Shown one piece after another: positions 5,090-62,946 of a DNA stretch of 62,946 bases. The position numbers were made by a program, and so were the translations under genes. The notes beneath the pieces are model-generated. The model ran no database searches. It was given only the letters and a program-made list of their open reading frames with translations, and was not told the origin of the DNA. The stretch is from Methanobacteriota archaeon. GTDB lineage: Archaea; Thermoplasmatota; Thermoplasmata; RBG-16-68-12. Numbering within the stretch: position 1 is the stretch's first letter; the number at the start of each line of letters is the position of its first letter. The stretch spans positions 1 to 62,946 of the forward strand of contig VBLT01000120.1 in assembly GCA_005878615.1 (NCBI GenBank), in the 5' to 3' direction.

Positions 5090-6436
5090 ATGGCCGTCCT
5101 CGATTCCATCCTGATCGCGGCGGCCGCGATCGTCCTCTGGTGCCTCCTGCTCTACGTGCTCCAGAGTCGGGGGCTCCTCGAGCGTCGGGGCCTGTCGCCT
5201 TCGCCTCCGCCCGCCGGGCCGTTCCTCATGTGGAAGACCGTCCGCGGGAGGCAGCTCATCGACCGCATCGCGCGGCGGAACGTGTTCTGGCGATGGTTCG
5301 GCGACCTCGCGATCGTCCTGGTCGCGGTCACCATGGTCGGGACGACCTTGCTCCTCCTGTGGGAGGCGACCTTGGTCCAAAGTTCGGCGGTCCGCGCGAA
5401 TCCTCCCTCCCCCGAACTCCTCCTCGGCCTTCCGGGGATCAACCCGATCATCCCGGTCGGCTACGGGATCTTCGGCCTGGCCGTGGCGATCATCCTCCAC
5501 GAGTTCTCGCATGGGATCCTCGCGCGCGTCGCCAAGATCCGGATTCGGTCCCTCGGCCTGATCTTCCTGATCTTTCCGATCGGCGCCTTCGTCGAGCCGG
5601 ATGAAGAGGAGCTGCGGGCCCTCCCGCGGCGGGACCGGGCCCGCCTGTTCGCCGCGGGGCCGGCGACGAACATCGTCCTGGCGATCCTCTTCGCGGTGAT
5701 CTTCTCCTCCGTCATGGCGACGTCGGTCCAGCCGGTCCACGACGGCGTCGGCATCGTCGCGTTTCCCCAGAACACGGCGTCTCCGGCGCAGGCCGCCGGG
5801 ATGCAGCCCTTCACGGTCATCACGAGCATCAACGGGCACGACATCCACACGTTCACGGACTTCACCTCGGCCCTCGCGCAGGCGCCGCTCAACCAATCGA
5901 TCCCGGTCGTCGCGTACGATCCGTCCACGGGCGCGAGCACGAACTATTCCGTCATCCTGACGGAACGGAGGGCCGAAACTGGCCGGGCCGTCCTGGGGAT
6001 CCTCGCGTTCGACATGGACACGAGCTACTATCATCCCTTGACGAACCCGGATCGCTTCAACGGCATCCCCGGCGCCATTCTCACCTACATCTCGCTCCCC
6101 TTCCAGGGCCGCTCGCCGATCGATGAACCGACGGTGCGGTTCTACCGCATCACGGGGCTCGCGGCCGCCGTGCCCGCGCCGTTGTTCTGGCTGCTCGCGA
6201 ACACCGCGTACTGGCTCTTCTGGCTGAACGCCATGCTCGGCGCGACGAACGCCCTCCCCGCGGTGCCGCTCGATGGCGGCTACATCTTCAAGGACGGGAT
6301 CGAGGGCTTCCTGTCCCGCATTCGAAAGGGCATCCCCACGGAGCAGCGCGACCGGATCGTGCGGAGCGTGAGCTACAGCTTCGCGTTCCTCATCCTCGGC
6401 CTCGTCCTGTGGCAATTCATCGGGCCGCGGATTTGA
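5090..6436 (+). CDS. site-2 protease family (M50) membrane metalloprotease with PDZ-like insert
   Basis: HEFSHGILARV (HExxH) and NALPAVPLDGG (LDG motif). Multiple TM segments. Confidence 0.85.
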   Translation: MAVLDSILIAAAAIVLWCLLLYVLQSRGLLERRGLSPSPPPAGPFLMWKTVRGRQLIDRIARRNVFWRWFGDLAIVLVAVTMVGTTLLLLWEATLVQSSAVRANPPSPELLLGLPGINPIIPVGYGIFGLAVAIILHEFSHGILARVAKIRIRSLGLIFLIFPIGAFVEPDEEELRALPRRDRARLFAAGPATNIVLAILFAVIFSSVMATSVQPVHDGVGIVAFPQNTASPAQAAGMQPFTVITSINGHDIHTFTDFTSALAQAPLNQSIPVVAYDPSTGASTNYSVILTERRAETGRAVLGILAFDMDTSYYHPLTNPDRFNGIPGAILTYISLPFQGRSPIDEPTVRFYRITGLAAAVPAPLFWLLANTAYWLFWLNAMLGATNALPAVPLDGGYIFKDGIEGFLSRIRKGIPTEQRDRIVRSVSYSFAFLILGLVLWQFIGPRI

Positions 6437-6442
6437 CTTCCG

Positions 6443-6763
6443 TCAGGGACCGCCTTCGGACGCGACGAGCCCGATGACGCCGGCGACGATCGAGAGAATC
6501 GAGCCGATCTGATTCAACTGGAGGATCAAGGCCACGACTCCGAGGATGATGTCGAGCAGTCCGCCCGAACCGTACTTGCTGCGGTAGATCAACAAGCTCG
6601 CCGCGAGGATCGCGATCCCGAGGACGAGGGGGACGAGCGCCGACAAGATCGCGGCGAGGTCGGAGACCCCCCGAAAGCCCCGGACAGCCTCATTGAGGAT
6701 CAGCAGGCCTCCCACGAGGCCGATGAGCAGGGCGATCAACGCGAGTAGCCGTTTCTCAGTCAT
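6443..6763 (-). CDS. small membrane protein
   Basis: 106-aa ORF with three hydrophobic helices. Confidence 0.5.
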   Translation of the reverse strand: MTEKRLLALIALLIGLVGGLLILNEAVRGFRGVSDLAAILSALVPLVLGIAILAASLLIYRSKYGSGGLLDIILGVVALILQLNQIGSILSIVAGVIGLVASEGGP

Positions 6764-6790
6764 ACGGTCCGGCGAACTCCGGAAAGGGCT

Positions 6791-7645
6791 TCAGCCTTTC
6801 TCCAGTCCCCCGACCCCCCAGATTCCGCGAGGATCGCCCGCGAACTCGTCGGTCCCCCACACCATCCGGAGGGCGCGGAAAACTTCCGCAAAGCGGAGCC
6901 CGCGGACGAACTCGAGGAGCGCGTCGTTCGCAGACGGGCCGCTGAAGGCGACCTCGGAAACGCCCGCCGCCAGGACGACGGTGTGGAAAAGGTCTCGAGC
7001 GACCGTCTCCCGCCCGGGCGCCACGACCCAAGGGCCGATCTCACATGCCTCGCCGCTCGGGTTTCCGACGATGACGCCTTGGATCGCGCCGCGCCGTTCG
7101 GCGATCAGAAAGGTCGCAGGCACCTCGTCCACGAGACGATCGAGCAAGGCGCGACGATTCGCTCCGAAATACGCTTGGTCCCACCGCGCCAAGGCTTCCA
7201 GGTCGTCCAGGCGAACCGGCCGGACGGTCCCGAGTCTACCTCTCGTACCCGGAGGCCCGTGCCAGCGGATGACCTCGTATTCGCGACGAAATCCGAGGCG
7301 CTCGTAGAACGGGATCGCGTTCAGGTAGGCATTGAGGCGCACGGACCGGACTCCCTTCCCGCGGAGGTGCTCCAAGGCCGCGTCCATCATCGCCTTCCCG
7401 ATCCCCTTGCCGCGAAGCTCCGGAGTCACGATGACGGCCCCGAGCCAAGCGACGGCGTCGTAGGTCGTCGTCGTCAGGACGCCGACGACGCGCCCGTTCG
7501 ACTCCGCCGCGAAACATCCGTCGGGCGAAAGCGCCAGCAACCGTCGGAAGTCCGCGCGGGTGTAACCCCAATGTTCGAGGTCGGTCAGGGCGATGGCGGC
7601 GTCGATGTCGCGGTCGGTGAGCCGTCGGACGTTCGCTGCTTCCAC
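6791..7645 (-). CDS. GNAT-family N-acetyltransferase (two-domain)
   Basis: AVIVTPELRGKGIGKAMMDAAL acetyl-CoA-binding motif. The start is set at GTG 7645 (VEAANVRRLTDRDID); upstream codons of ORF 6791..7792 are R-rich and non-protein-like. Confidence 0.75.
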   Translation of the reverse strand: MEAANVRRLTDRDIDAAIALTDLEHWGYTRADFRRLLALSPDGCFAAESNGRVVGVLTTTTYDAVAWLGAVIVTPELRGKGIGKAMMDAALEHLRGKGVRSVRLNAYLNAIPFYERLGFRREYEVIRWHGPPGTRGRLGTVRPVRLDDLEALARWDQAYFGANRRALLDRLVDEVPATFLIAERRGAIQGVIVGNPSGEACEIGPWVVAPGRETVARDLFHTVVLAAGVSEVAFSGPSANDALLEFVRGLRFAEVFRALRMVWGTDEFAGDPRGIWGVGGLEKG

Positions 7646-13585: not shown

Positions 13586-13987
13586 ATGCTCCACGTGACC
13601 GCGACGGCACTCCTCCTGAAGGAGGGGCGGGTCCTCCTGGGAAGACGGACCAGCACAGTCCGTTTCGCCGGCATGTGGGATGCCTTCGGCGGCCACCTGG
13701 TGCCCTGCGAGGAACCCTCGACCGCCTTGATCCGGGAACTGAAAGAAGAGCTAGGGATCGAGGTCGTCGGCCCGCGGTTCTTGGGGATTTACGAAGACGT
13801 CGACCCGACATCCCGAGACCTTTTCCGCCACTACCTCTTCGTCGTGACCCGGTGGGAGGGCGATGTGCGGATTGCGAACGAGGAACATTCGGAGATTCGC
13901 TGGTTCACGCCCTCGGACGCGGTGATGTTGGATCTGGCACCGTCCTTGAAGGACTCGATCCGTCGACTGATTCCGACGAAACCTTAA
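13586..13987 (+). CDS. Nudix hydrolase
   Basis: Nudix box GGHLVPCEEPSTALIRELKEELGI (Gx5Ex7REUxEExGU). Confidence 0.85.
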   Translation: MLHVTATALLLKEGRVLLGRRTSTVRFAGMWDAFGGHLVPCEEPSTALIRELKEELGIEVVGPRFLGIYEDVDPTSRDLFRHYLFVVTRWEGDVRIANEEHSEIRWFTPSDAVMLDLAPSLKDSIRRLIPTKP

Positions 13988-14021: not shown

Positions 14022-14441
14022 ATGACGGATGACGCGACGATTCGAAAGATCCTGACGACCATCCGAACGATTGCGGTCGTCGGATGTTCGAAGGACCCCA
14101 CCAAAGATGCGCACCGGGTCCCGAAGTACATGCAACAGCATGGGTACCGAATCATCCCGGTGAATCCGACGGCGACGGAGATCCTCGGCGAGAAGGCGTA
14201 CCCGTCCCTTGACGCGGTCCCGATCCCATACGACGCCGTCGACATCTTCCGCCCGTCCGCGGATGTCCCGCCGATCGTCGATCAGGCGATCAAGGGTCCC
14301 GCGAAGGTCATCTGGATGCAGCTCGGCATCCGGAACGAGGCGGCGGCCTCCAAGGCCCAGGCGGCCGGCAGGACCGTCGTGCAGGACCACTGCCTGATGC
14401 GCGACCACGCGCGGCTATTCGGCGGCGACATCCTCGAATGA
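14022..14441 (+). CDS. CoA-binding domain protein (YccU-like)
   Basis: IAVVGCSKDPTKDAHRVPKYMQQHGYRIIPVNP... VDIFRP... VIWMQLG. Confidence 0.85.
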   Translation: MTDDATIRKILTTIRTIAVVGCSKDPTKDAHRVPKYMQQHGYRIIPVNPTATEILGEKAYPSLDAVPIPYDAVDIFRPSADVPPIVDQAIKGPAKVIWMQLGIRNEAAASKAQAAGRTVVQDHCLMRDHARLFGGDILE

Positions 14442-47564: not shown

Positions 47565-50500
47565 ATGATCAAGCAGGCGGAGAAGACGTACGCTCCCCTA
47601 GAGGTGGAGCGCCAGGTCCAGGAATTTTGGAACCGCGCGAAGGTCTACGCGAAGACCGTCGCGGCGCGTTCGAAGGGGGAAGACTTCTACTTCGGCGACG
47701 GCCCGCCCTATACGACCGGGTCAATCCACCTGGGCAATGTCCTGAACAAGTCCCTGAAAGACGCCGTCATCCGCTTTCGCCGGATGCGTGGCTTCCACGT
47801 CCGAGACCAGCCCGGGTACGACATGCATGGCCTCCCGATCGAGGTCCAGGTCGAGAAGACCCTGGGGATCACGAACAAGAAGGAGATCGAGGACTTGGGG
47901 ATCGAGAAATTCGTCTCGACCTGTCGCAAGTTCGCCCTCGATTTGCTGAACAAGATGACGGACCAGTTCCGGGCCCTCGGGATCTGGATGGACTGGGACC
48001 GGCCGTACATGACGATCCGGAACGAATTCATCGAGGCGGCGTGGTGGACCCTCGGCCGCGCGCACGAACGCGGTCTGCTCTACGAGGCCCTCCGCTCGAC
48101 CCAGTGGTGCTCCCGCGACGAAACCGCCCTGGCCGACGCGGAGATCGAGTACTCGGATGAGACGGATCCCTCCATCTACGTCAAGTTCCCGCTCCGGGAC
48201 CGACCCGCCGAATCGCTCCTGATCTGGACGACGACTCCCTGGACCCTCCCAGCGAATCTGGCAATCGCGGTCCACCCGCAGTTCGTCTACTCGAAGGTGA
48301 AGGTGGTCCGCGGAGAGTCCGTGGAATTTCTGTGGACGATGGAGGCGACGGTTCCCGCCGTCATGGCCCGCGGCGGGGTGACCGCCTACGAGGTCACCGA
48401 GACGACGACCGGCGACAAGCTGGTCGGCCTGGCCTATGCGCACCCCCTCGCGGACAAGGTCCCCTATCAGGCGACCGCGACGGGGGAATGGGTCCATCGC
48501 GTGGTCTCCTCGACCACCGTCGAGGCGGAGCACACGGGCCTCGTCCACAGCGCACCGGGTCACGGTCCGGAAGATTTCGAACTCGGGCAGACCCTCGGGT
48601 TGCCGGTCTTCAGTCCGGTCGACGGACGGGGCCATTTCACGAAGGAGGCGGGCGTGTACGCCGACAAGCCGGTCAAAGAGGCGGACGCGGTGATCATCGA
48701 GGACCTCCGCGCCGCGAACGCTCTCTTCGCCGCGGAGACGCTGGTCCATGCCTACGGTCACTGCTGGCGCTGCAAGACGCCGATCCTCTACCGCGCGACG
48801 GTCCAGTGGTTCCTGCGGGTCACGCCGATCAAAGCGAAAATGGTCGACGAGGTTCGCCGGGTCGCGTGGTATCCAGAATGGGCGGGCGCGGCCCGTCAGA
48901 TGGACTGGACCCAGAACCTGCGGGATTGGTGCCTCTCCCGCCAGCGGTACTGGGGCATCCCGCTCCCGATCTGGCGGTGCACGAAGTGCGGCCACTGGAT
49001 CGTCGTGGGCTCCTCGGACGCGTTGCGGAAGGCGCAGGGATACGCGGACGGCATGGACCTCCACCGGCCGGGGATCGACCAGGTCGTCCTGCCGTGTCCG
49101 AAGTGCCGCGAGGAGATGCGGCGGGTCCCCGACATCCTCGACGTGTGGTGGGACAGCGGAGTGGCCAGTTGGGCGAGCCTCGGATATCCCGCGCGGGACG
49201 ACGAGTTCCGCCGGTGGTGGCCGGAGGACTGGATCGTCGAAGGTCCCGACCAGACCCGGGGTTGGTTCAACTCGCAGCTCGCCGCCGGCGTGGTCGCCTT
49301 CGACCGAGCGCCGTACGACAGCGTCCTCATGCACGGGTGGGTGAACGGGCCCGACGGCCGGCAGATGCACAAATCCCTCGGCAACATCATCGAGCCGGAG
49401 ACGGTCGTCCGCAAGTTCGGCGTCGACGCGCTCCGCTTCTACATGCTCTCCGTCAACGCACCGTGGGACGACATCACCTTTCAGGAAGACGGGGTTCGCA
49501 ACGCCAACCGCACCCTGAACATCCTGTGGAACGTCCTGCGCTTTGCGACGACCTACATGGTCCTCGATCGATTCGATCCGACGGCGCCGGACTTCGCCTC
49601 GATCTCTGGCCATCTGCGACCCGAGGATCGGTGGCTCCTCTCCCGGCTCGAAGGCCTCAAGGCGACCGTGAATGCGGAGTTTGCGACGTACAATCTGCAT
49701 CGGGCCTTTCGGGCGGTCGAGTCCTTCATCCTCGATGACCTCTCGCGCTGGTATGTGAAACTCGTCCGGGGCCGGACCTGGACGGAAGCCGAGGATCGCG
49801 ACAAGCTCGCGGCGTACCATGTGTTGTTCGAGGCGTTGCGCACCGTCGCGGTCCTGCTCGCGCCGGTCACGCCGTTCGTCGCCGAAGCGATCTATCAGCG
49901 ACTGGATGGGAAGAAGCTCAGCGTGCACATGCTCGATTGGCCCTCCGCCCAGGAGGAGCGACTCCAGCCGGACCTCGAGCGGTCCATGTCGATCGTCCAG
50001 GAACTCGTCGAGATCGTCTCGAAGGAGCGGCAGAAGGGAGGGCGCAAGCTCCGGTGGCCGTTGAAGCTGATCGCGGTCCAGGCGCCGACGCCGGAGGCGG
50101 CCAAGGCCCTCGAGACGTTGCGGGGCATCTTCCTCGAACAGGCGAACGCGAAAGCGCTTGCGGTCCTCAAAGCGAACGAGGAATTCCCTGGGATGGCCCT
50201 CGTGGTGAAGCCGGACGGAGCGGCGATCGGGAAGGCCTATCGGGTCCTCCAGCCGAAGATCGTGAAGCTCCTCGAGGGTCGCCCGCCCGAGGAAATCAAG
50301 AAGGCGCTCGACAAGGGCCGACTCGAAGTCGGCGTCGAAGGCCAGGTCGTCGCGATCGACCCGTCGATGGTCCGATTTGAGAAGGCGATGCCTTCCGAGG
50401 TCGTCCGGGTGCCCACGCCGTACGGCGAGCTCTACCTCGACCTGCGCGTGACGCCGGAGCTCCGTGCCGAGGCCTACGCGCGCGAGTTGATCCGCCGGAT

Positions 50501-51719
50501 CCAACAGATGCGGAAAGAGATCGATCTGGACGTAGATGACTTCCTGATCACGGTCATCAAGACGAACAAGGAATTGGCGGCGTTGATCGGGGGACAGAGG
50601 GATTTCATTGGTCGGGAGACCCGCTCGCGTCGGATCACGTTCACGGACGGAGCGGTCGAGGCCGAGTACGTCGTGGAATGGAACGACGTCGACGGACATT
50701 CGGTGACGATCGGCGTCACACCGCTCCACATGTCCGAGGCCCTCCGCGACTTCACGAAGATCCCGGGCATCACGGTCGCGAAGGCGATGGGCCTGTTCGA
50801 TGCGGGCTACAAGAGCCTCGCGGCGTTGCGCGCGGCGACGAAACAAGAGCTCGCGCAGATCGAGGGCCTCCAAGTCGCGGATGCGGTTCGGATCTTGGAC
50901 GCGCTCGCGGCGAAGAGGGACACATCGATCCCATGCCCCACGTGCGGGGCGGCCATCGCCCCATCGACCCGCCGATGCGCGCGGTGCGGCGAACCCGTCG
51001 CAACGAAGGGGACCCCTTGCCCCAGGTGTCGCGCGGAGATCCCTCCGGGCGCGGACAACTGCCCGGTCTGCGGCTTCGTCTTGTCCACGTCGGCGACGGC
51101 CCCGCCGTCGCGCGTCGCATGCATCGCCTGCGGCGAGCTCATTCCCGCGGGCTCGACCGAGTGCCCGTCCTGTGGCGCTCCCCAAACCCGGGCCCCCGCG
51201 TCGAATCGTGCGGCCTCGGAGGACGACGCTCCGCCCCTCTTGAAAGATTCCTCCTCCTATCTCGTCGAGGAATCGGTCCCGGACGGGGCCTATCGGCTCT
51301 TCGAGATCGCCCAGAGGGCGGGGAAAGGCGGGATGGTCATCACGCGGACGTTCCCGCAGAAAGTCCGGGAGCGACTGAGCGGTCCCCCCTTCCCGATCCT
51401 GTGGCTCAGCAATGTCGGGAAGGAAGACACCGTCCGACCGAAAGACCTGGAGAAACTGTCCCTCGCCGTCGAGCAGTTCCTCGCTCGGGAGAAGGGCGTC
51501 ATCCTCCTCGACGCGATTGAATACCTGGTGACGAACAACAATTTCATCACGGTCCTGCGGCTCGTGCAATCGATCCGCGACCAGGTCGCGATCAACAGTG
51601 GGGTGTTCCTCCTCTCCGTGAACCCGTCGGCCCTCGATCCGCACCAGCTGACCTTGCTCGAGAAGGAGGTCGACCGGGTCATCCCCGGGTCGTCCGGCGC
51701 GCGGACCGCGTCGGGCTAG
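47565..51719 (+). CDS. ileS: isoleucyl-tRNA synthetase fused in frame to a C-terminal HhH + 3x zinc-ribbon + DUF835-like module (1384 aa)
   Basis: Class I motifs PPYTTGSIHLGN (HIGH-type) and KMHKSLGN (KMSKS-type). CP1 editing region. The ORF runs uninterrupted past the usual end at ~aa 1054. Confidence 0.9.
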   Translation: MIKQAEKTYAPLEVERQVQEFWNRAKVYAKTVAARSKGEDFYFGDGPPYTTGSIHLGNVLNKSLKDAVIRFRRMRGFHVRDQPGYDMHGLPIEVQVEKTLGITNKKEIEDLGIEKFVSTCRKFALDLLNKMTDQFRALGIWMDWDRPYMTIRNEFIEAAWWTLGRAHERGLLYEALRSTQWCSRDETALADAEIEYSDETDPSIYVKFPLRDRPAESLLIWTTTPWTLPANLAIAVHPQFVYSKVKVVRGESVEFLWTMEATVPAVMARGGVTAYEVTETTTGDKLVGLAYAHPLADKVPYQATATGEWVHRVVSSTTVEAEHTGLVHSAPGHGPEDFELGQTLGLPVFSPVDGRGHFTKEAGVYADKPVKEADAVIIEDLRAANALFAAETLVHAYGHCWRCKTPILYRATVQWFLRVTPIKAKMVDEVRRVAWYPEWAGAARQMDWTQNLRDWCLSRQRYWGIPLPIWRCTKCGHWIVVGSSDALRKAQGYADGMDLHRPGIDQVVLPCPKCREEMRRVPDILDVWWDSGVASWASLGYPARDDEFRRWWPEDWIVEGPDQTRGWFNSQLAAGVVAFDRAPYDSVLMHGWVNGPDGRQMHKSLGNIIEPETVVRKFGVDALRFYMLSVNAPWDDITFQEDGVRNANRTLNILWNVLRFATTYMVLDRFDPTAPDFASISGHLRPEDRWLLSRLEGLKATVNAEFATYNLHRAFRAVESFILDDLSRWYVKLVRGRTWTEAEDRDKLAAYHVLFEALRTVAVLLAPVTPFVAEAIYQRLDGKKLSVHMLDWPSAQEERLQPDLERSMSIVQELVEIVSKERQKGGRKLRWPLKLIAVQAPTPEAAKALETLRGIFLEQANAKALAVLKANEEFPGMALVVKPDGAAIGKAYRVLQPKIVKLLEGRPPEEIKKALDKGRLEVGVEGQVVAIDPSMVRFEKAMPSEVVRVPTPYGELYLDLRVTPELRAEAYARELIRRIQQMRKEIDLDVDDFLITVIKTNKELAALIGGQRDFIGRETRSRRITFTDGAVEAEYVVEWNDVDGHSVTIGVTPLHMSEALRDFTKIPGITVAKAMGLFDAGYKSLAALRAATKQELAQIEGLQVADAVRILDALAAKRDTSIPCPTCGAAIAPSTRRCARCGEPVATKGTPCPRCRAEIPPGADNCPVCGFVLSTSATAPPSRVACIACGELIPAGSTECPSCGAPQTRAPASNRAASEDDAPPLLKDSSSYLVEESVPDGAYRLFEIAQRAGKGGMVITRTFPQKVRERLSGPPFPILWLSNVGKEDTVRPKDLEKLSLAVEQFLAREKGVILLDAIEYLVTNNNFITVLRLVQSIRDQVAINSGVFLLSVNPSALDPHQLTLLEKEVDRVIPGSSGARTASG

Positions 51720-52513
51720 GATTCCCGGTCCTTGCGGAGCACCGCCGCGACGACTTCGGGAAGTCGCGGGACCGTTTCGTAGCGACTGATCTCCTCCGGC
51801 CGAATCCAGCGGTACTCGACGTTCTCCCAATCGAGGCGCACGCGGCGGCTCGGTGCGTCGAAGAGGAGGGGGTGGACGACGAACATCGTGGCGCCGTCGC
51901 GGGCAAGGATTGGGGCCGCGTTCGCACGAAACCGGATCCCTCGAAGACCGGTCTCCTCTCGCACCTCTCGGATCGCGCGGGATTTCGGATCCTCGCGGCC
52001 TTCCATGTACCCCGAGATGGCCGACCACTGACCTCGGAACGTGCCGACCGCTGCACTTCGCCGCACGAGGAGGATCCGGCCGCGGTTGCGCAGGACGACC
52101 GAGACGACGGATCGTCCGCGGACGCCCGCGAGCTCGACGGTCCCACGGTCCCCGTCGATGCGGACCGTGTCGTCGTTCTCCAGGCCACCCACGTCGATCC
52201 CATCGACCATGGGAATCCCGGCGAGGATCGCGCCGACCGCGACGATTCCCTCGGCCGCGGAGTTGACAATGCCCGCCGGGCCGACGCCCCTTTTTGCGAG
52301 GCCGTAGATCACGTAGGAGCCGACCGTGCTCCCCTTGCCGTGCGGGAATGCGAAGATCCGCCCGCCGAGGCGTTCGTTCGCGGCGCCCGTCGCGGCGTCG
52401 AGGACGGCGCCCGTGGCCGGATCCGCGCCGCCGACGAACGAGAAAGGGACGCGAATCACCAACGCGGTCCCTTCCGTCCGGCCCGGTGCAATCCCGCGTC
52501 CGCGGAGCTTCAT
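51716..52513 (-). CDS. AcnX swivel (DUF126) small subunit fused to a Nudix hydrolase domain (265 aa)
   Basis: The N-terminal half FAFPHGKGSTVGSYVIYGLAKRGVGPAGIVN...AVGAILAGIPMVD is DUF126. The C-terminal half carries the Nudix box GYMEGREDPKSRAIREVREETGL. ATGA overlap with the large subunit. Confidence 0.8.
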   Translation of the reverse strand: MKLRGRGIAPGRTEGTALVIRVPFSFVGGADPATGAVLDAATGAANERLGGRIFAFPHGKGSTVGSYVIYGLAKRGVGPAGIVNSAAEGIVAVGAILAGIPMVDGIDVGGLENDDTVRIDGDRGTVELAGVRGRSVVSVVLRNRGRILLVRRSAAVGTFRGQWSAISGYMEGREDPKSRAIREVREETGLRGIRFRANAAPILARDGATMFVVHPLLFDAPSRRVRLDWENVEYRWIRPEEISRYETVPRLPEVVAAVLRKDRES

Positions 52514-53574
52514 CCGTACCGCTCCAAGAGGGCATCGAGCTCGTCGAGGATGACCTTCTGTTTGCACAAGGTCGGCAGGTAGTACGCGGCCTTTCCCGAA
52601 GGCGTCGCGACCGTCCCGAATTGATGCTCGAGCAGTGTGACCTCGAGGCACGTATCCGCGAGGACGCGGCCACCGTGGCTCTCGATCGCCGCGACCGGCT
52701 CCGGGTTCTCGTCCCGGACGGCGCGACTCGTGAAGACCCAGACCGGGATCCGGGGAGGCTTCCGTCGCACGCGGTCCGCGACGCCCCACAGTTCCTGCCC
52801 AGAGAGTTGGGGCGAGCCGAGCGCGATCACGTCCGGCTTCGTCCCGTCCGTGAAGGACCTCTGGGCCTCGACCAGATCGCGCCGGGAGATCGTGATGGAG
52901 GGCAGGCCTGCGGTGCGGGCCCGCCGCGCCTCGGGGGTGACGTCTTCGAGGTGGAACATGGCACAGGCGCCCGTCGAGGCGAGCGACGCCCCGAGCCATT
53001 TCAGGTCCTCCTCGGACCCGTGGAATCCGCGGAAGAACGGGAGGCCATCGCCCACGCGCTGGCCCGCAACCAGACCGATGAGGGAGAAGTCGAGGCCGTG
53101 TGGTTTGGTGGTCACGTTCACGCGGACGGTCGGCCGTCGGCCTTCGTCCTTGTGGAGGCCGTGGTCTGGCGTCGCGCCGACGATCGCGGCGGCCAGGGCC
53201 GAAGGGCCTCCCTCGCGGTTCGTCCGTGCCCCGAGGACGGAGTTGGCGAAGCACACGGCGTTCGATTCGGCCCAGGCGACGTGCTCTCCGAACGCGGGCC
53301 GCGCTCCAACGAGGTACGGCGTGCATGTGAAACTCGGACGGACGCCCATCGATCCGTAGGCGCGGGCTCGGGCGTCGCGCGCGAAGTCCTCGAGGAACTC
53401 GAGGCCCGGATCGCCAATCATCTTGTACGAGGCGCCCGACACGTGCGCCGAAGTGACGGGGACGAGACGCTCCGCCTCCGAGAGATGGGAGAGGGCGAGC
53501 AGGATCTGCATCGCCTTGCGCTGCGCCGGCGTGCCGTCGTCCCGCAAGCGGCGCTGCTCGCGGGTGAGCCGCAT
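52510..53574 (-). CDS. AcnX (DUF521) aconitase-X catalytic large subunit
   Basis: VTSAHVSGASYKMIG..., CTPYL..., WAESNAVCFANSVLGARTNREGG. Confidence 0.8.
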   Translation of the reverse strand: MRLTREQRRLRDDGTPAQRKAMQILLALSHLSEAERLVPVTSAHVSGASYKMIGDPGLEFLEDFARDARARAYGSMGVRPSFTCTPYLVGARPAFGEHVAWAESNAVCFANSVLGARTNREGGPSALAAAIVGATPDHGLHKDEGRRPTVRVNVTTKPHGLDFSLIGLVAGQRVGDGLPFFRGFHGSEEDLKWLGASLASTGACAMFHLEDVTPEARRARTAGLPSITISRRDLVEAQRSFTDGTKPDVIALGSPQLSGQELWGVADRVRRKPPRIPVWVFTSRAVRDENPEPVAAIESHGGRVLADTCLEVTLLEHQFGTVATPSGKAAYYLPTLCKQKVILDELDALLERYG

Positions 53575-54009
53575 TCACGCCGCCCCGGCCAGGATGGACT
53601 TGGCGACCCGTCGGGCTGACTCAGGCTTCGCCGGGTAGGCGACCAGTTTCACGCGGACATCGATCGTGTCGGAGTCCGTCGCGAGGGACCACCGTTCCTC
53701 GAAGGCCGCCTGCTTGTCGAGCCGAAAATGCAGGATGCCCTCCTCGTCCACGCGCGCGTCCGCCTCGGTCGCGAGGGCCTCGAGCAGGCCGGCGGCGGTC
53801 CACCGCTCCCAAGCCGTTCGGATCGACGGATTTTCCTCGAGCCGCCTGGTGAGCCGGACGAGCTCGTTCCCGAAGTGCCCCTGGAGCACCTCGCGGGCGG
53901 GGGTTCCTCCGGGCACCGCGAAGTCCAAAGCCCTTCCCACCCGGCCTTCGTCCTCCGTGGCATGGCGGTACGTCCGCGCTTCGATCCACCGAATCGGTAG
54001 CTTAGCCAT
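53575..54009 (-). CDS. UPF0201-type RNA-binding protein (predicted exosome-associated)
   Basis: IEARTYRHATEDEGRVGRAL matches the xTED motif of the family. 144 aa. Abuts the acnX large subunit start. Confidence 0.6.
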   Translation of the reverse strand: MAKLPIRWIEARTYRHATEDEGRVGRALDFAVPGGTPAREVLQGHFGNELVRLTRRLEENPSIRTAWERWTAAGLLEALATEADARVDEEGILHFRLDKQAAFEERWSLATDSDTIDVRVKLVAYPAKPESARRVAKSILAGAA

Positions 54010-54538
54010 GGAGCCGCCCCAAGGCCGTCCGCGCTTGGCGTCGGAATTCCTCCAAGGTTCCTTCGTTGACGAGCATCACGTCGGCCGTCGCGATCACGTC
54101 GCCGAGCCCCCAGCTCAACTCCCGTAGATCGCGGGCGCGGAACGCCTCGATCGATCCGGCATCGTCGGTCCGGCGACGCCGCAGCATCCGCTCGTACCGG
54201 GTCCTCGGGGACGCGTGGACGGCGACGACGGACAGGTCATCACCGAACGAGTTCCTGAAAACTTCGAGTTCCGCCCGCCCGCGAAGTCCGTCGACCAACA
54301 CCCGCTCTCCAGAGATGCGGGGGAGGGTCCGTTCCGCCCAGACCCCCATCCCTTGGATCTGTCGCTCGGCGTGGGCCATCCCCCCGACGGTCGTATCGCT
54401 GATTGGGAGTCCGCGACGCAAGGCTTCCTCGCGGACGACGTCGCCCATTCGGACAACCGCGAAGCCCAACGTCTGTGCGACCGCCAGGGCCTCTTCCTTC
54501 CCGCAGCCCGGCATGCCGGTGAGGCAAACGACGCGCAC
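54002..54538 (-). CDS. UPF0200-type P-loop kinase-like protein (dephospho-CoA kinase-like)
   Basis: GTG 54538. VVCLTGMPGCGKEEALAVAQTLGFAVVRMGDVVREEALRRGL. 8-nt overlap with the next gene. Confidence 0.7.
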   Translation of the reverse strand: MRVVCLTGMPGCGKEEALAVAQTLGFAVVRMGDVVREEALRRGLPISDTTVGGMAHAERQIQGMGVWAERTLPRISGERVLVDGLRGRAELEVFRNSFGDDLSVVAVHASPRTRYERMLRRRRTDDAGSIEAFRARDLRELSWGLGDVIATADVMLVNEGTLEEFRRQARTALGRLHG

Positions 54539-54618
54539 GGGAGGCGAGGAATCGGAGAGTTCACTTAAGCGTTTCCCGCGACCTCGGGAGGATTCCGCTT
54601 CACGAGCAGAAGACCGTT

Positions 54619-59190: not shown

Positions 59191-60580
59191 CGGATTCGTC
59201 CTCGTCGAACGCGGGGAGCGAGCCCTCCTTCGACTCGGTGGCGCGAGACCCGGCGACGAGGGCCGCCTTCTCGAGGAGGTGCTTCACCGCGTGGCTCGAC
59301 TCGGGCTCTTCCATCAGGAGGGCGACCTCGGCGTCCTCGAGGCCGAGGGTGGCCGTGAGATTCACCCGCAGCTCCTCGTCGCCCTGAAACAGCATCCGGA
59401 TCGTCGGGAGGAGCTCGTCGAGGACGAGGGTCCGCGACACGTGCAGGTGGCGAGCGAGTTTCGTGGCGAGGGACGTCCGCGCCCCGCGCTGCGCCCGGGA
59501 GCGCGCCATCTGGATCAGGTAGTACGGGAACTCGAGCTGGCCGCCTCGACCGCGTCCCTTCCGCGCGGACGCGACCCCGCTCGACATCAGCTCCTTCGCG
59601 TAGGACCAGAGGCCGAAACTCTGTCGCCGACGGGCCCGCCCCAGGAAAACGTCTGCGCGGCTCAGCGCATCATACCCGCGGGCCAAGTCGTCGGGACGGC
59701 CGAACTCGTGGCCCAGGTTCTGATCGACCCATAAGATGAGGTCTTCCGGGGATTCGTCGAGTCCCGTCGCCGCGTCTTTCGCGCGCCGCGCATCTCCGGA
59801 CCGGAGGATCTCCTCGATCGCGGGGAAAATCGTGCGCTCTCGGTCGCGGTATCCGAGGGCCTTCGTGCCGGTGCCTCGAACGGTGTCTTTACCGATCGCG
59901 AGCGACTCGAGGTCGTTGATTGCGGACCGCAGATCTCCGGAGGACCGCTCGACAATCACATCGAGGACCTCCGAGGCCGCCTCGACGCCCTCCTCAGTGG
60001 CAATGGTCCGAAGTATGTTTTTCATGGCGTCATCGTGAATAGGTTGAAATTTGATGGTCTTGCTTAATCGCTTCAGGGAGGACGATCGTCGGGTGAGCCC
60101 GTAGTAGTCGTTCGCGATCAGGACGATCGGCTGCCCGCTGGTCTGGATCGTCTCGACAATCGCGCCGATCCCTCCGCGGTCCTCCCGGCCGAACACGTTG
60201 TCGGCCTCGTCGAGGACGATCAGCTTGCGGCCTCCTTGGTCCGCTCGGAGGAATTCGCCGGAATCGCTGAAGGTCTGCAGGACGGCCCCGCGCGTCGCGA
60301 CCTTCCGAATCGCCTCCGCGTTCCGGCTGTCCGAGGCGTTCATTTCGACGACGCTCCAGCCCATCTCCTTCGCGAGGGCGAGCGCGGCGCTGGTCTTCCC
60401 GATGCCGGGAAGGCCCTGCAAGATGACCGCTTTCTTGTCCGGTCGACCGCGCTGCCATGCGGCCGCCCACTTGCGGAGCTCGGCGACCGCGGTCGGATTC
60501 GCGACGATGTCGTCGAGGTCCTTCGGTCGGTGTCGCTCCGCCCAGTTCATGCCCGCTCCGAGAATCGGACGCGCGGTCAT
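59180..60580 (-). CDS. rfcL: replication factor C large subunit
   Basis: WAERHRPKDLDDIV, Walker A GLPGIGKTS, Walker B LIVLDEADN. ATG 60550 is the alternative start. Confidence 0.9.
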   Translation of the reverse strand: MTARPILGAGMNWAERHRPKDLDDIVANPTAVAELRKWAAAWQRGRPDKKAVILQGLPGIGKTSAALALAKEMGWSVVEMNASDSRNAEAIRKVATRGAVLQTFSDSGEFLRADQGGRKLIVLDEADNVFGREDRGGIGAIVETIQTSGQPIVLIANDYYGLTRRSSSLKRLSKTIKFQPIHDDAMKNILRTIATEEGVEAASEVLDVIVERSSGDLRSAINDLESLAIGKDTVRGTGTKALGYRDRERTIFPAIEEILRSGDARRAKDAATGLDESPEDLILWVDQNLGHEFGRPDDLARGYDALSRADVFLGRARRRQSFGLWSYAKELMSSGVASARKGRGRGGQLEFPYYLIQMARSRAQRGARTSLATKLARHLHVSRTLVLDELLPTIRMLFQGDEELRVNLTATLGLEDAEVALLMEEPESSHAVKHLLEKAALVAGSRATESKEGSLPAFDEDESDAA

Positions 60581-60675
60581 AACCCTATCACCTACGTGGC
60601 GAAATCTTGCGATTTAGCACAAACATATGATTTGTATAGCTGTTACAAAACCGAATAGGAATTTATATGTTACAG

Positions 60676-61326
60676 CTAAACAGGCTTTTGATTGCCGATT
60701 TCTGTGCTTTGCACCGACTTCTCGACCGAATCGCAAAGCTCAGACAGGAATTGGTCGTAAGTTTTTCGAAACTTCAGCCGGTACAATCGATTCCGAGTCA
60801 CGGTCGACAACTGGATCGTCGTCAGGTCCCGGGTTTTCTGCGTGGGAGAGGTCTGCGCACTGATTGTCGGCATGGGCTTCACCGGACTAGGTTTTGTCAA
60901 ACCGGGCATTGCCCCCGTTTCCGTATACACTCGGTAGACCGAAGGTCTACGGATGCTTCCATCCAAGGCTGGGTCAATCCCTGGAGGATGAAGAATACAG
61001 CGCGGACTGCCGGGCTCAATTATCGCGTTGCAAGCCCTGCAGAGCAGCCGAAATCCTGATTCACCGCGGAGAATCTTGAAACTCAAGTCTGCGGAGTGAG
61101 TTTTGCGCGTCAGTCGACGCCCACCCCCGTTAATGTGGTCGAACTCCAGTCGGTTCGGCCCGTACACGTCGGTCCACCCGCAACAGGCACAACGGGGGGC
61201 GCCTTGAGACAACAGTATCATGGCTCTGATCCGCCGACGTCGTCTCGATTGCCGCTGCAGCGCACGATATGCATCTGGATGAGCCTTGCGCCAACGTTTC
61301 ACGGCTTCGGTCGACTTATATGGCAT
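60676..61326 (-). CDS. HNH-endonuclease-like protein with C-terminal RHH-like segment
   Basis: CACCGW...EFDHINGGG...LLCRACN is an HNH-type motif. The C-terminal part is IQLSTVTRNRLYRLKFRKTYDQFLSEL. Confidence 0.6.
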   Translation of the reverse strand: MPYKSTEAVKRWRKAHPDAYRALQRQSRRRRRIRAMILLSQGAPRCACCGWTDVYGPNRLEFDHINGGGRRLTRKTHSADLSFKILRGESGFRLLCRACNAIIEPGSPRCILHPPGIDPALDGSIRRPSVYRVYTETGAMPGLTKPSPVKPMPTISAQTSPTQKTRDLTTIQLSTVTRNRLYRLKFRKTYDQFLSELCDSVEKSVQSTEIGNQKPV

Positions 61327-61486
61327 CGGACATTGGTTGGAGGACCGGAGCTCTATTTACATATCTCCGGGCTAGGCGAAGGTAATGCGCCCAGTTCATG
61401 GCGAACCAAGACGGAGCAGCGAACGGGTCGCGTTTATTGCGAACCTTTGGGCGTTTGTAGTTGCCATTCAACAACGGCTGGAACGG

Positions 61487-62215
61487 CTAGTCGACGTAGT
61501 CCTCGAGTCGAAGGTGCGGTGTTTCCGTTTTTCTTTGATCGGGTCGTCGGATTCTCCGTTGCATTTCATTTTGGACTCGGTTAAACGTGTCAATCTCGAT
61601 GAGCGGATCGTGCTTCCCTCGCTTGATTCCGCCGTTCAACCGCGAGAGTCCACAGTAGACCGGGTTGCTGAGGATATTCGCAATAGTCTGACTCGCCCAG
61701 GCTCGTCCAGTCTTCGTCCGGTACCCATCCCGATTTAGTTCTTGGCAAATTTTCGCGATACCTCGGCCTTCAAGATAGCGACGGAAAATCAAAGAAACCA
61801 CGCGGGCTTCTTCTTGCTTTACTTGGAGGATCCCGTTTACGTAGTCGTAGCCATACGGACTTGCATATGTGAGGAATGCATTTGCCTTCTTCACTGCATT
61901 GTTCAAAGCATCCGCGTTTTGTTGGCCACGAGCCCTTCGGATGACTTCACGTTCATTCAGGTCGCGCTCGATGCAGAGTTTGCGCAAGGCATCTTCTTCC
62001 GTTTCCGAATTGTAGTGCTGCAAGAGTTCTCGCGTAGAGCCAAATCGCATATAGATTTCCCAGAACAGTAAAGCGTCCGTTGGAGCACTGTCGACACAAT
62101 GCTTACAGAGGATGACCTTCTCTTTCCGAATTGTAGGATCCGCGCGCGGATTAGCTTCGACTTCATGGTTCACAAGGTTCTTTGAAACCCAGCAACGCCC
62201 GCACCGCCCCTCCAC
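61487..62215 (-). CDS. recombinase-domain protein lacking a resolvase catalytic domain (N-terminal CxxC...CxxC zinc ribbon)
   Basis: PYGYDYVNGILQVKQEEARVVSLIFRRYLEGRGIAKICQELNRDGYRTKTGRAWASQTIANILSNPVYCG is paralogous to the recombinase domain of the upstream gene. GTG start 2 nt after the upstream stop. Confidence 0.6.
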   Translation of the reverse strand: MEGRCGRCWVSKNLVNHEVEANPRADPTIRKEKVILCKHCVDSAPTDALLFWEIYMRFGSTRELLQHYNSETEEDALRKLCIERDLNEREVIRRARGQQNADALNNAVKKANAFLTYASPYGYDYVNGILQVKQEEARVVSLIFRRYLEGRGIAKICQELNRDGYRTKTGRAWASQTIANILSNPVYCGLSRLNGGIKRGKHDPLIEIDTFNRVQNEMQRRIRRPDQRKTETPHLRLEDYVD

Positions 62216-62217
62216 CT

Positions 62218-62946
62218 TCAGGCCTCCAGCAAAACGGGGGGCGATTGAGCGTCCGTGTTCAGCGCGCGCGAACGCAGTCGTTCCTGGGTTTCGTTGTATT
62301 CGGCTACGGAGACGAGGGGTTCGTGCTCAGCTTTGCGGGTGAATTGGTCCCACCGCAAGAAGCCCGCATACACCGGATTGTGCAGAATCCGGTAGACTTT
62401 GAAGGCGGTCCAGGCGGTTTCCCGTTTCGTCCGAACTCCCGATGCATTCAAACCCGACGCTATTTCTTCCAGCGTCTCTCCCGCTGCACATCGCTCGAAG
62501 ATCTCACAGACGACCGCGGCTTCGCGATCGTTTCGAACGAGTCGGCCCTCCGAGATGTCGTACCCGAGAGGGGCGTGGAATCCCAGGATCCCGGGGCCCT
62601 CCTTGGCCTTCTGCGACATCCCCATCTTGACTCGCTCCCCGATCTGCTCGGACTCGAGCTGCGCGATCCTCTGGATGATGTCCATCACGAAGCGGCCCAT
62701 CGCGGTGGACGTGTCGAGGGACTCCGTGGCGGACACGAAGTCCTTCTCCCATTCGCCCAATTGATCCATCATCTCCATGAAGTTCCGCGCGTTTCGATGG
62801 ATCCGGTCCATCTTGATCACGAGGATCGCGTCCCACCGATCACGTTCCTCGAACATGCGTTGATACGCGGGCCGGCGGGTGTTGCGGCCGGAGTGCCCAT
62901 CGTCCACATACAGGGCCGCGACCTCCCAGCCCCGGGCCAGACAGTA
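62218..62946 (-). CDS. serine recombinase (resolvase + recombinase domains), N-terminus outside the window
   Basis: The frame stays open to the window edge (..YCLARGWEVAALYVDDGHSGRNTRRPAYQRM..). AILVIKMDRIHRN and GRFVMDIIQRIAQLESEQIGERVK (E-helix). Recombinase domain PLGYDISEGRLV...ILHNPVYAG. Confidence 0.8.
   Translation of the reverse strand, partial: YCLARGWEVAALYVDDGHSGRNTRRPAYQRMFEERDRWDAILVIKMDRIHRNARNFMEMMDQLGEWEKDFVSATESLDTSTAMGRFVMDIIQRIAQLESEQIGERVKMGMSQKAKEGPGILGFHAPLGYDISEGRLVRNDREAAVVCEIFERCAAGETLEEIASGLNASGVRTKRETAWTAFKVYRILHNPVYAGFLRWDQFTRKAEHEPLVSVAEYNETQERLRSRALNTDAQSPPVLLEA

Follow-up and report, generated by a model that had tools for sequence, protein, structure and literature searches.

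Why the small subunit of an archaeal dehydratase should end in a complete Nudix hydrolase domain is the question raised by a locus on contig VBLT01000120.1 (assembly GCA_005878615.1) of a Methanobacteriota archaeon from soil, placed in the class Thermoplasmata; we analysed positions 1 to 62,946 of this contig and refer to the whole 62,946-nucleotide stretch as the window. At 51716-54538, four minus-strand genes stand in a row, encoding a UPF0200 kinase-like protein, a UPF0201 protein, the large subunit of aconitase X (AcnX) and an AcnX small subunit that continues into a Nudix domain (Table 1). Characterized AcnX enzymes of this kind belong to the archaeal mevalonate pathway, which makes precursors of membrane lipids and was worked out in 2018. 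A preliminary description of the locus, made from the sequence alone, knew of no earlier account of the fusion and had suggested that it could couple the dehydratase to the hydrolysis of a diphosphate metabolite, with isoprenoid diphosphates as one speculative candidate. The explanation that we favour, with a probability of roughly 0.6 for the whole of it, is that of a type IIb AcnX dehydratase whose swivel (small) subunit is extended without a linker by a competent Nudix pyrophosphohydrolase, through an ancient fusion dating from early in the history of Thermoplasmata and retained since. In such a complex, the Fe-S-containing large subunit would receive its catalytic Ser/Thr loop from the swivel domain, the C-terminal domain would hydrolyse a small anionic diphosphate compound to its monophosphate with Mg2+ as the required ion, and the Nudix domain would ride on the dehydratase complex in Thermoplasmata with an activity that is probably self-standing.

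The fused small subunit and its distribution

The small-subunit gene is one continuous open reading frame (ORF) carrying PF01989 and PF00293, as had been described. In an AlphaFold2 model of the fusion, built from a 92-sequence alignment and scoring a pLDDT (predicted local distance difference test) of 95.7 and a pTM (predicted template-modelling score) of 0.88, the last swivel strand (aa 125-129) runs straight into the first Nudix strand (aa 132-143), and the model suggests that the two domains are rigidly packed in a fixed mutual orientation. When the halves were compared with solved structures by Foldseek, the swivel half matched chains B, D and F of 7CNR (TK1248) with template-modelling (TM) scores of 0.93-0.95 and root-mean-square deviations of 1.0-1.1 Å, and the Nudix half, with the α/β/α sandwich of the Nudix fold, matched many Nudix structures with a probability of 1.00, including NudI/YfaO, 3GRN and further minimal MutT-like proteins (22-28% identity); among the Foldseek matches there was no solved structure with both halves. 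The catalytic loop GKGSTVGSY at aa 59-67 (52313-52339) is identical to that of TK1248 in the HMMER alignment, where it is aligned with Ser62, Thr63 and Val64, and is invariant in our alignment A4; in the Thermococcus small subunit, Ser62 is catalytic and Thr63 and Val64 bind the substrate (PMC8184944). Judged by sequence and model, the small-subunit part looks functional, and the polypeptide as a whole has two separate active sites.

An assembly error does not account for the fusion, because independent soil contigs cross the junction between the domains and more than 100 homologues share the architecture; a sequencing or assembly artefact was ruled out on these grounds. Contigs assembled from soil metagenomes in the Logan collection crossed the junction (52110-52130) without an insertion or deletion, one each in runs X1, X2 and X5, whereas run X3 yielded both a contig identical to the window and a more divergent one. 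A frameshift in this interval, one of the observations that the preliminary description had named as refuting it, was thus not seen in these contigs. All 120 of the homologue clusters listed, at 63-98% identity, carry PF01989 together with PF00293, which makes at least 120 clusters with the fusion, and approximately 30 further two-domain representatives at 29-55% identity were found in a search of 1.8 billion cluster representatives (clustered at 50% identity). In a scan of one genome per GTDB species with an eight-sequence alignment as the query, approximately 40 genomes had the gene order AcnX large subunit, AcnX small subunit–Nudix and convergent isoleucyl-tRNA synthetase (IleRS). The named genomes with the fusion are Thermoplasmata or unclassified Methanobacteriota, namely soil and aquifer metagenome-assembled genomes (MAGs) of the EA_, SMAG_ and RBG_16_ series and several Methanomassiliicoccales, among them Methanomassiliicoccus sp. 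UBA6. AcnX small subunits without a Nudix domain were seen in Bathyarchaeia, Thermococci, Methanomicrobiales and Chloroflexi.

The fusion is thus not rare but present across Thermoplasmata, and it is visible in precomputed Pfam annotation; no defined function is attached to it. We found no literature in which a Nudix protein is paired with phosphomevalonate dehydratase (PMDh), aconitase X, anhydromevalonate or the archaeal mevalonate pathway, so that, as far as our search reached, what the preliminary description said of the literature stands. With both domains already in automatic annotation, the architecture is an uncharacterized variant of a known enzyme and not a new kind of system. In one complete MAG chromosome, CP070748.1 (locus L011, 5704-6492), the fusion is under-annotated, since the gene call comprises a 163-aa Nudix protein only and the full AcnX small subunit–Nudix frame is visible by tblastn and in the ORF map; the apparent stand-alone Nudix gene was rejected as a mis-called start of the full fusion.

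The dehydratase and its large subunit

On its sequence, the AcnX pair is of the archaeal type IIb, whose characterized members are PMDh; the assignment, in line with the preliminary description, is borne out by the separate subunits and by the matches to TK1248 and TK1249. Adjacent DUF521 and DUF126 genes are common to this locus and to the PMDh of Aeropyrum pernix (APE_2087.1 and APE_2089) and of Thermococcus kodakarensis (TK1249 and TK1248; 7CNR/7CNS). The small-subunit part is 52% identical to TK1248 and superimposable on it, with the catalytic Ser-Thr loop kept, and the large-subunit residues Glu129, Ser130, Lys361, Tyr365, Cys110 and Cys342 (Thermococcus numbering, here and below) are conserved. 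The window differs from PMDh in the C-terminal Nudix domain of its small subunit, in the Ser283 and Glu344 that it has in common with a clade of soil relatives, in the Met at the position of Asn53 and in the absence of 33 residues from its large subunit.

The large subunit has 354 aa in the window as against 387 aa in seven relatives with called genes, and its match to TK1249 falls into two stretches. We aligned 52 relatives, each with at least 300 residues matched to the Thermococcus protein. The gene of locus L007 is nearly identical to that of the window except that it lacks the 99-nt deletion, and the other relatives compared were also undeleted. The 33 lost residues, which are conserved, correspond to approximately residues 72-95 of the Thermococcus large subunit; among them is Asn79, a contact of both the substrate's 5-phosphate and Glu129 (PMC8184944). 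The match of contigs from four soil runs breaks off at 53364 and 53367, from where these contigs read on into the segment that the window lacks, i.e. they carry the undeleted form, and the junction 53367|53368 was found in no indexed public run, a result that does not tell a rare variant from an artefact. The loss keeps the reading frame, with microhomology of at most 1 nt, and reflects either a fault of assembly or a variant that is rare and recent; if it is real, this copy of the dehydratase is probably inactive. Another irregularity in the same gene was seen at locus L001, where an extra partial copy (6098-6834), consisting of the 5' half of the large-subunit gene followed by the 3' part of the UPF0201 gene, lies between UPF0201 and the full large-subunit gene, as the result of either a tandem duplication or a misassembly.

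The large subunit also departs from the known enzymes in its cluster ligands. The [4Fe-4S] cluster of the Thermococcus large subunit is bound by Cys110, Cys283 and Cys342 (PMC8184944). In the soil clade (loci L001-L032, L037, L038 and L052), position 283 is Ser, Thr or Ala and is always accompanied by Glu at position 344, and most members gain Cys at positions 134 and 232; all other lineages, including the Methanomassiliicoccales that bear the fusion, keep Cys283 with Val or Ile at position 344. The ligand swap and the Nudix fusion do not coincide in distribution. Position 344 is the counterpart of Cys510, which in the bacterial type I enzyme is a ligand of the cluster, and glutamate has been raised as a possible ligand in other AcnX types (PMC8184944). 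The swap in the soil clade is possibly an alternative mode of cluster binding. The exchange of Cys283 for Ser and of Val344 for Glu would be a natural variant bearing on Fe-S binding in AcnX, a question left by the structural paper (PMC8184944). We also scored the contacts to mevalonate 5-phosphate (Gly48, Ser50, Asn53, Asn79, Glu129, Ser130, Ser131, Lys361 and Tyr365): undeleted relatives keep them except for Asn53, which is replaced by Met, Leu or Thr, and Ser131, which is Asn in part of them, and the window has the set incomplete, with Asn79 deleted and Met in place of Asn53. The preliminary description was right in recognizing an AcnX large subunit and had overlooked both the 99-nt deletion and the Cys283/Val344 swap.

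The Nudix domain and its possible role

The Nudix box of the window, GYMEGREDPKSRAIREVREETGL (aa 168-190; 51944-52012), fits GX5EX7REUXEEXGU at every position, and the pattern G-x5-E-x7-x-E-x2-EE-x-G is retained in 118 of 120 close orthologues; Glu174, Glu183, Glu186 and Glu187 are each conserved in 97-98% of 138 fused sequences. By these motifs the domain looks catalytically competent. We regard as very improbable the alternative that it has become non-catalytic and regulates or stabilizes the dehydratase as a ligand sensor or structural appendage: the rigid packing predicted by the model (pTM 0.88), the frequent substitution of the Arg of REUXEE in orthologues and the divergent member P0218, with a degenerate box beside an intact AcnX small subunit, would suit it, but the three metal-binding glutamates are kept in nearly all fused sequences along with many pocket residues, the box of the window is fully canonical, and the domain persists where no dehydratase function appears to remain to be regulated (see below).

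As to the kind of hydrolase, the best matches among PDB entries, in sequence and in fold, were NudI (YfaO) and minimal MutT-like proteins (6DT3, 3OGA, 3N77 and 3GRN), which have in common with the window domain a length of approximately 135 aa and a canonical box. These are, in contrast, stand-alone proteins without the motifs found downstream of the box in the clade discussed below, and the substrate of NudI cannot be transferred to the window domain because those signature motifs are not shared. The specificity markers of CoA pyrophosphatases, ADP-ribose hydrolases (Pro) and ApnA hydrolases (Tyr), applied by eye, did not fit, there being an invariant Arg at the place in question, 15 residues after the box. 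Type-1 isopentenyl-diphosphate isomerase (IDI), to which the preliminary description had pointed, was rejected: the domain scored 18.4 bits with NF002995 against a cut-off of 127, it has a hydrolase box and is approximately 45 aa shorter, and the Nudix fold alone is common to the two.

The nearest relatives outside AcnX are fusions in which a Nudix domain stands N-terminal to an IF-2B domain (PF01008). With one of these as the query, 955 matches were obtained at E ≤ 1e-10, and nearly all of the 120 listed hold both domains; they come from Nitrososphaerales, Halobacteria, Poribacteria, Dehalococcoidia and even one green alga. HVO_1934 is annotated as such a fusion (PMC8576121). In Chromatiales and Sedimenticolaceae, the Nudix protein is a stand-alone one of 138-143 aa, encoded directly upstream of the IF-2B gene and usually overlapping it (loci L079, L080, L082, L085 and L092). 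At L080 (6007-11163), the pair is followed by genes for DUF547, for CbbQ, a component of RuBisCO activase, and by a 708-aa ORF, a context that hints at a link to RuBisCO metabolism. Members of the clade also stand alone in Helarchaeota and some bacteria; the Helarchaeota homologues were considered as a functional clue and set aside, their contexts being uninformative. Outside the box, the clade is marked by RRSxxVGxFxGxW, SGYxE, REETG, VHPFLF, DWE[NH]xExRW and TVPxL, and these motifs are present in the window domain, e.g. as DWENVEYRW at aa 228-236 and TVPRL at aa 247-251. Approximately 30 positions are common to all groups in the conservation table made for each group. These comparisons show that the domain belongs, by sequence, to a distinct and strongly conserved Nudix clade partnered elsewhere with IF-2B-like sugar-phosphate isomerases. 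The fused form of the window and the Nudix–IF-2B forms are 46-50% identical in this domain; in one the partner is an N-terminal AcnX swivel domain and in the other a C-terminal IF-2B-like isomerase, and the IF-2B-associated forms lack Arg205, have a box loop one residue shorter and often lack the Glu of GX5E. The scan of window proteins brought up no IF-2B protein, and the partner of the Nudix domain here is the AcnX swivel domain instead.

Residue Arg205 (51899-51901) lies 15 residues after the box, which we take to be the classical specificity position. Among swivel-fused forms it occurs in 99% of the intact and 94% of the degenerate ones, and it is variable in IF-2B-associated forms; this lineage-specific Arg suggests an altered or additional anionic contact in the swivel-fused forms. 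Positions 159 and 211 also differ by group. This bears on the proposal that the Nudix domain does the same job as in its IF-2B-associated relatives, for instance making ribose 1,5-bisphosphate from 5-phosphoribosyl 1-diphosphate (PRPP) or an ADP-ribose derivative, the fusion to AcnX being accidental and without coupling. Association with IF-2B, fused or overlapping, is by far the commonest context of the clade, the pair at L080 lies beside CbbQ, and the window domain is as close to the bacterial forms (48-50% identity) as to the fused forms of Methanomassiliicoccales (40-47%). Other Nudix enzymes are known to convert PRPP into ribose 1,5-bisphosphate (Fisher et al. 2002, as cited in PMC5389931), and such a Nudix route has been proposed for archaea without AMP phosphorylase (PMC7300363). 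However, residues 159, 205 and 211 consistently set swivel-fused forms apart from IF-2B-associated ones, the swivel domain is retained even when degenerate, suggesting structural or functional integration, and the function of the IF-2B partner is itself unproven; we consider this proposal improbable.

Degenerate swivel domains were found in Thermoplasmata proteins of approximately 245 aa that keep the Nudix signature behind a swivel-like N-terminus without GKGSTVGSY (loci L054-L060, L062, L064, L065, L069, L073, L074, L078, L081, L083 and L089). Their hosts include Candidatus Sysuiplasma and Lutacidiplasmatales, several of them MAGs from acid mine drainage. Within the fetched flanks of these loci there was no gene for the AcnX large subunit. 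The convergent IleRS gene is kept at L057, L069 and L081, and the upstream genes for Rpb7, DUF359 and S24e at L057 and L069 match those of L011, where the large-subunit gene is present. These lineages are read most simply as having lost or relocated the dehydratase while the Nudix function stayed. Retention of the Nudix domain where the swivel domain is degenerate and no large-subunit gene is adjacent speaks against an obligatory mechanistic link between Nudix domain and dehydratase and suggests that the Nudix domain works independently of the dehydratase; its activity is also probably self-standing because the clade is elsewhere fused to, or encoded beside, IF-2B-like isomerases.

The same observations weaken the coupling to isoprenoid diphosphates put forward in the preliminary description, which is not supported as it was stated. 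In a more specific form, the Nudix domain would act on a diphosphate of the isoprenoid pathway, either isopentenyl diphosphate (IPP) or dimethylallyl diphosphate (DMAPP) or else a product of a promiscuous kinase, namely mevalonate 5-diphosphate or anhydromevalonate diphosphate. Serving as a flux valve or for metabolite repair, it would return the compound to the monophosphates on which the dehydratase, the decarboxylase and isopentenyl-phosphate kinase (IPK) draw. That a whole archaeal class has kept the domain fused to an enzyme of the mevalonate pathway speaks for such a role, as do the small Nudix enzymes of the NudI/YfaO type as nearest structures and Arg205, which is specific to the Thermoplasmata forms and would fit an extra anionic group such as a carboxylate. 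Plants offer a precedent, in that Nudix hydrolases and IPK together set the ratio of isopentenyl phosphate to IPP (PMC8248349), although the plant proteins (AtNUDX1/3) are separate, eukaryotic and of a different Nudix clade, and the analogy is functional only. An independent phosphohydrolase gene was seen at locus L093 (2433-6588), in the order UbiD, AcnX large subunit and AcnX small subunit, the last joined to an ARMT1/DUF89-like phosphatase that is split into two ORFs. The apparent fusion of AcnX small subunit and DUF89 (P0260) was not accepted, as it may be a frameshift artefact, and only the gene adjacency can be trusted because the contig has many split genes; since the DUF89/ARMT1-like gene directly follows the small-subunit gene, a phosphohydrolase beside AcnX may nevertheless recur.

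On the other side, nearly all of the core residues of the Nudix domain are common to the partners of IF-2B, including those of gammaproteobacteria presumed to lack the mevalonate pathway. To our knowledge, the Chromatiales and Sedimenticolaceae concerned are expected to be without it. The Nudix domain also survives beside a degenerate swivel domain with no neighbouring large-subunit gene, the product of the dehydratase is a monophosphate and hence not a Nudix substrate, the neighbour at L093 lies on a contig of split genes, and we know of no source of mevalonate diphosphate in such archaea. We therefore think a role on isoprenoid diphosphates unlikely. More speculative still is a picture drawn by analogy, and in our view doubtful, in which the domain would be a pathway-dedicated diphosphatase for proofreading or flux control carried on PMDh, an archaeal counterpart of the plant IPK/Nudix valve acting on over-phosphorylated intermediates or IPP/DMAPP, with the Fe-S cluster of the soil-clade dehydratase held by Cys-Cys-Glu in place of three Cys.

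The explanation preferred at the outset, a type IIb dehydratase carrying a competent and self-standing Nudix hydrolase, has several observations weighing against it. On the side of the hydrolase, the conservation table shows no conservation of the GX5E glutamate among IF-2B-associated relatives, approximately 60% of close orthologues have Gln, Val or another residue in place of the Arg of REUXEE, and the designation as an active hydrolase derives from motif conservation because we found no biochemical data for this Nudix clade. On the side of the dehydratase, the large subunit of the window is without Asn79 and, of the three Cys ligands, has Cys110 and Cys342, and none of the 20 window proteins scanned was another enzyme of the mevalonate pathway, be it mevalonate kinase, a UbiD-type anhydromevalonate-phosphate decarboxylase with UbiX, or IPK. 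As to its age, a crude neighbour-joining tree of the Nudix domains was star-like and did not resolve their topology, for which reason a single origin of the fusion is drawn from synteny and not from phylogeny. A conserved fusion of a pyrophosphohydrolase with PMDh, the signature enzyme of the archaeal mevalonate pathway, offers a way to a control or repair step still missing from that pathway, and the substrate of one member of the clade would annotate a large family that is fused to IF-2B in hundreds of archaeal and bacterial lineages.

The four-gene locus and its surroundings

The four genes were identified by Pfam and PDB sequence matches (Table 1), which confirmed each of the identities previously given. 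The arrangement read from the sequence likewise agreed exactly with the one described. The UPF0200 and UPF0201 genes overlap by 8 nt, with the ATG of UPF0201 overlapping the upstream TAA in ATGGCTAA, the UPF0201 and large-subunit genes abut with a gap of 0 nt, TGA being followed directly by ATG, and the large- and small-subunit genes overlap in ATGA.

Table 1 Features of the AcnX–Nudix locus in the window
Feature	Position	Strand	Evidence or remark
UPF0200-family P-loop protein (adenylate-kinase-like), 178 aa, GTG start	54002-54538	-	Heads the overlapping set; Pfam AAA_17/AAA_18; PDB 3H0K (SSO1041, UPF0200), 1.2e-29
UPF0201 'RNA binding' protein, 144 aa	53575-54009	-	PF01877, 8.3e-23; PDB MTH689, 3.5e-19
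AcnX (DUF521) large subunit, 354 aa	52510-53574	-	PF04412, 1.8e-112; TK1249 (7CNR_A), 1.4e-78
Junction of the 99-nt in-frame deletion	53364-53371 (between 53368 and 53367)	-	Seen when the DNA was aligned to L007 and L008
Ser254, at the position of Fe-S ligand Cys283	52813-52815	-	Landmark-residue table of 52 large subunits
Glu311, at Thermococcus position 344 (Val344 to Glu)	52642-52644	-	Co-varies with Ser254
AcnX small subunit–Nudix fusion, 265 aa	51716-52513	-	Shares ATGA with the large-subunit gene
AcnX small-subunit (swivel, DUF126) domain, aa 1-130	52124-52513	-	PF01989 at aa 24-103, 6.7e-26; TK1248, 3.6e-35
Nudix domain, aa 131-265, no linker	51719-52123	-	PF00293 at aa 133-256, 9.2e-15
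CTAG, overlapping stop codons of the fusion (-) and the convergent IleRS gene (+)	51716-51719	.	Sequence and ORF ends

The same operon with identical junction spacing is found at L003, L005, L007 and other loci, and a 178-aa UPF0200 orthologue occupies the equivalent position at L001, L003, L005 and L007. The UPF0200 and UPF0201 genes lie upstream in only part of Thermoplasmata, and there the 8/0/4-nt spacing is exactly conserved. Soil metatranscriptome contigs at low depth touch the Nudix part, the large-subunit gene and the UPF0201 gene and give weak evidence that the locus is transcribed. Upstream of the set (54539-54585, minus strand), a TTAAGT 24 nt before the GTG of the UPF0200 gene was noted by eye as a candidate archaeal TATA box for a leaderless transcript of the four genes.

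The IleRS gene that converges on the fusion (47565-51719, plus strand) encodes 1384 aa, with a C-terminal extension of approximately 330 aa that is annotated with DZR zinc ribbons and DUF835 in relatives; the convergent arrangement of IleRS and fusion is conserved across Thermoplasmata. Elsewhere in the window, a second Nudix protein stands alone (133 aa; PF00293, 1e-20; 13586-13987, plus strand), encoded directly upstream of a CoA_binding_2 gene (14022-14441, plus strand). At the far end (60001-62946), the GC content drops from approximately 0.65 to 0.56 and an ORF at 62218-62907 (minus strand) looks recombinase-like by eye; this region may be the edge of an integrated element.

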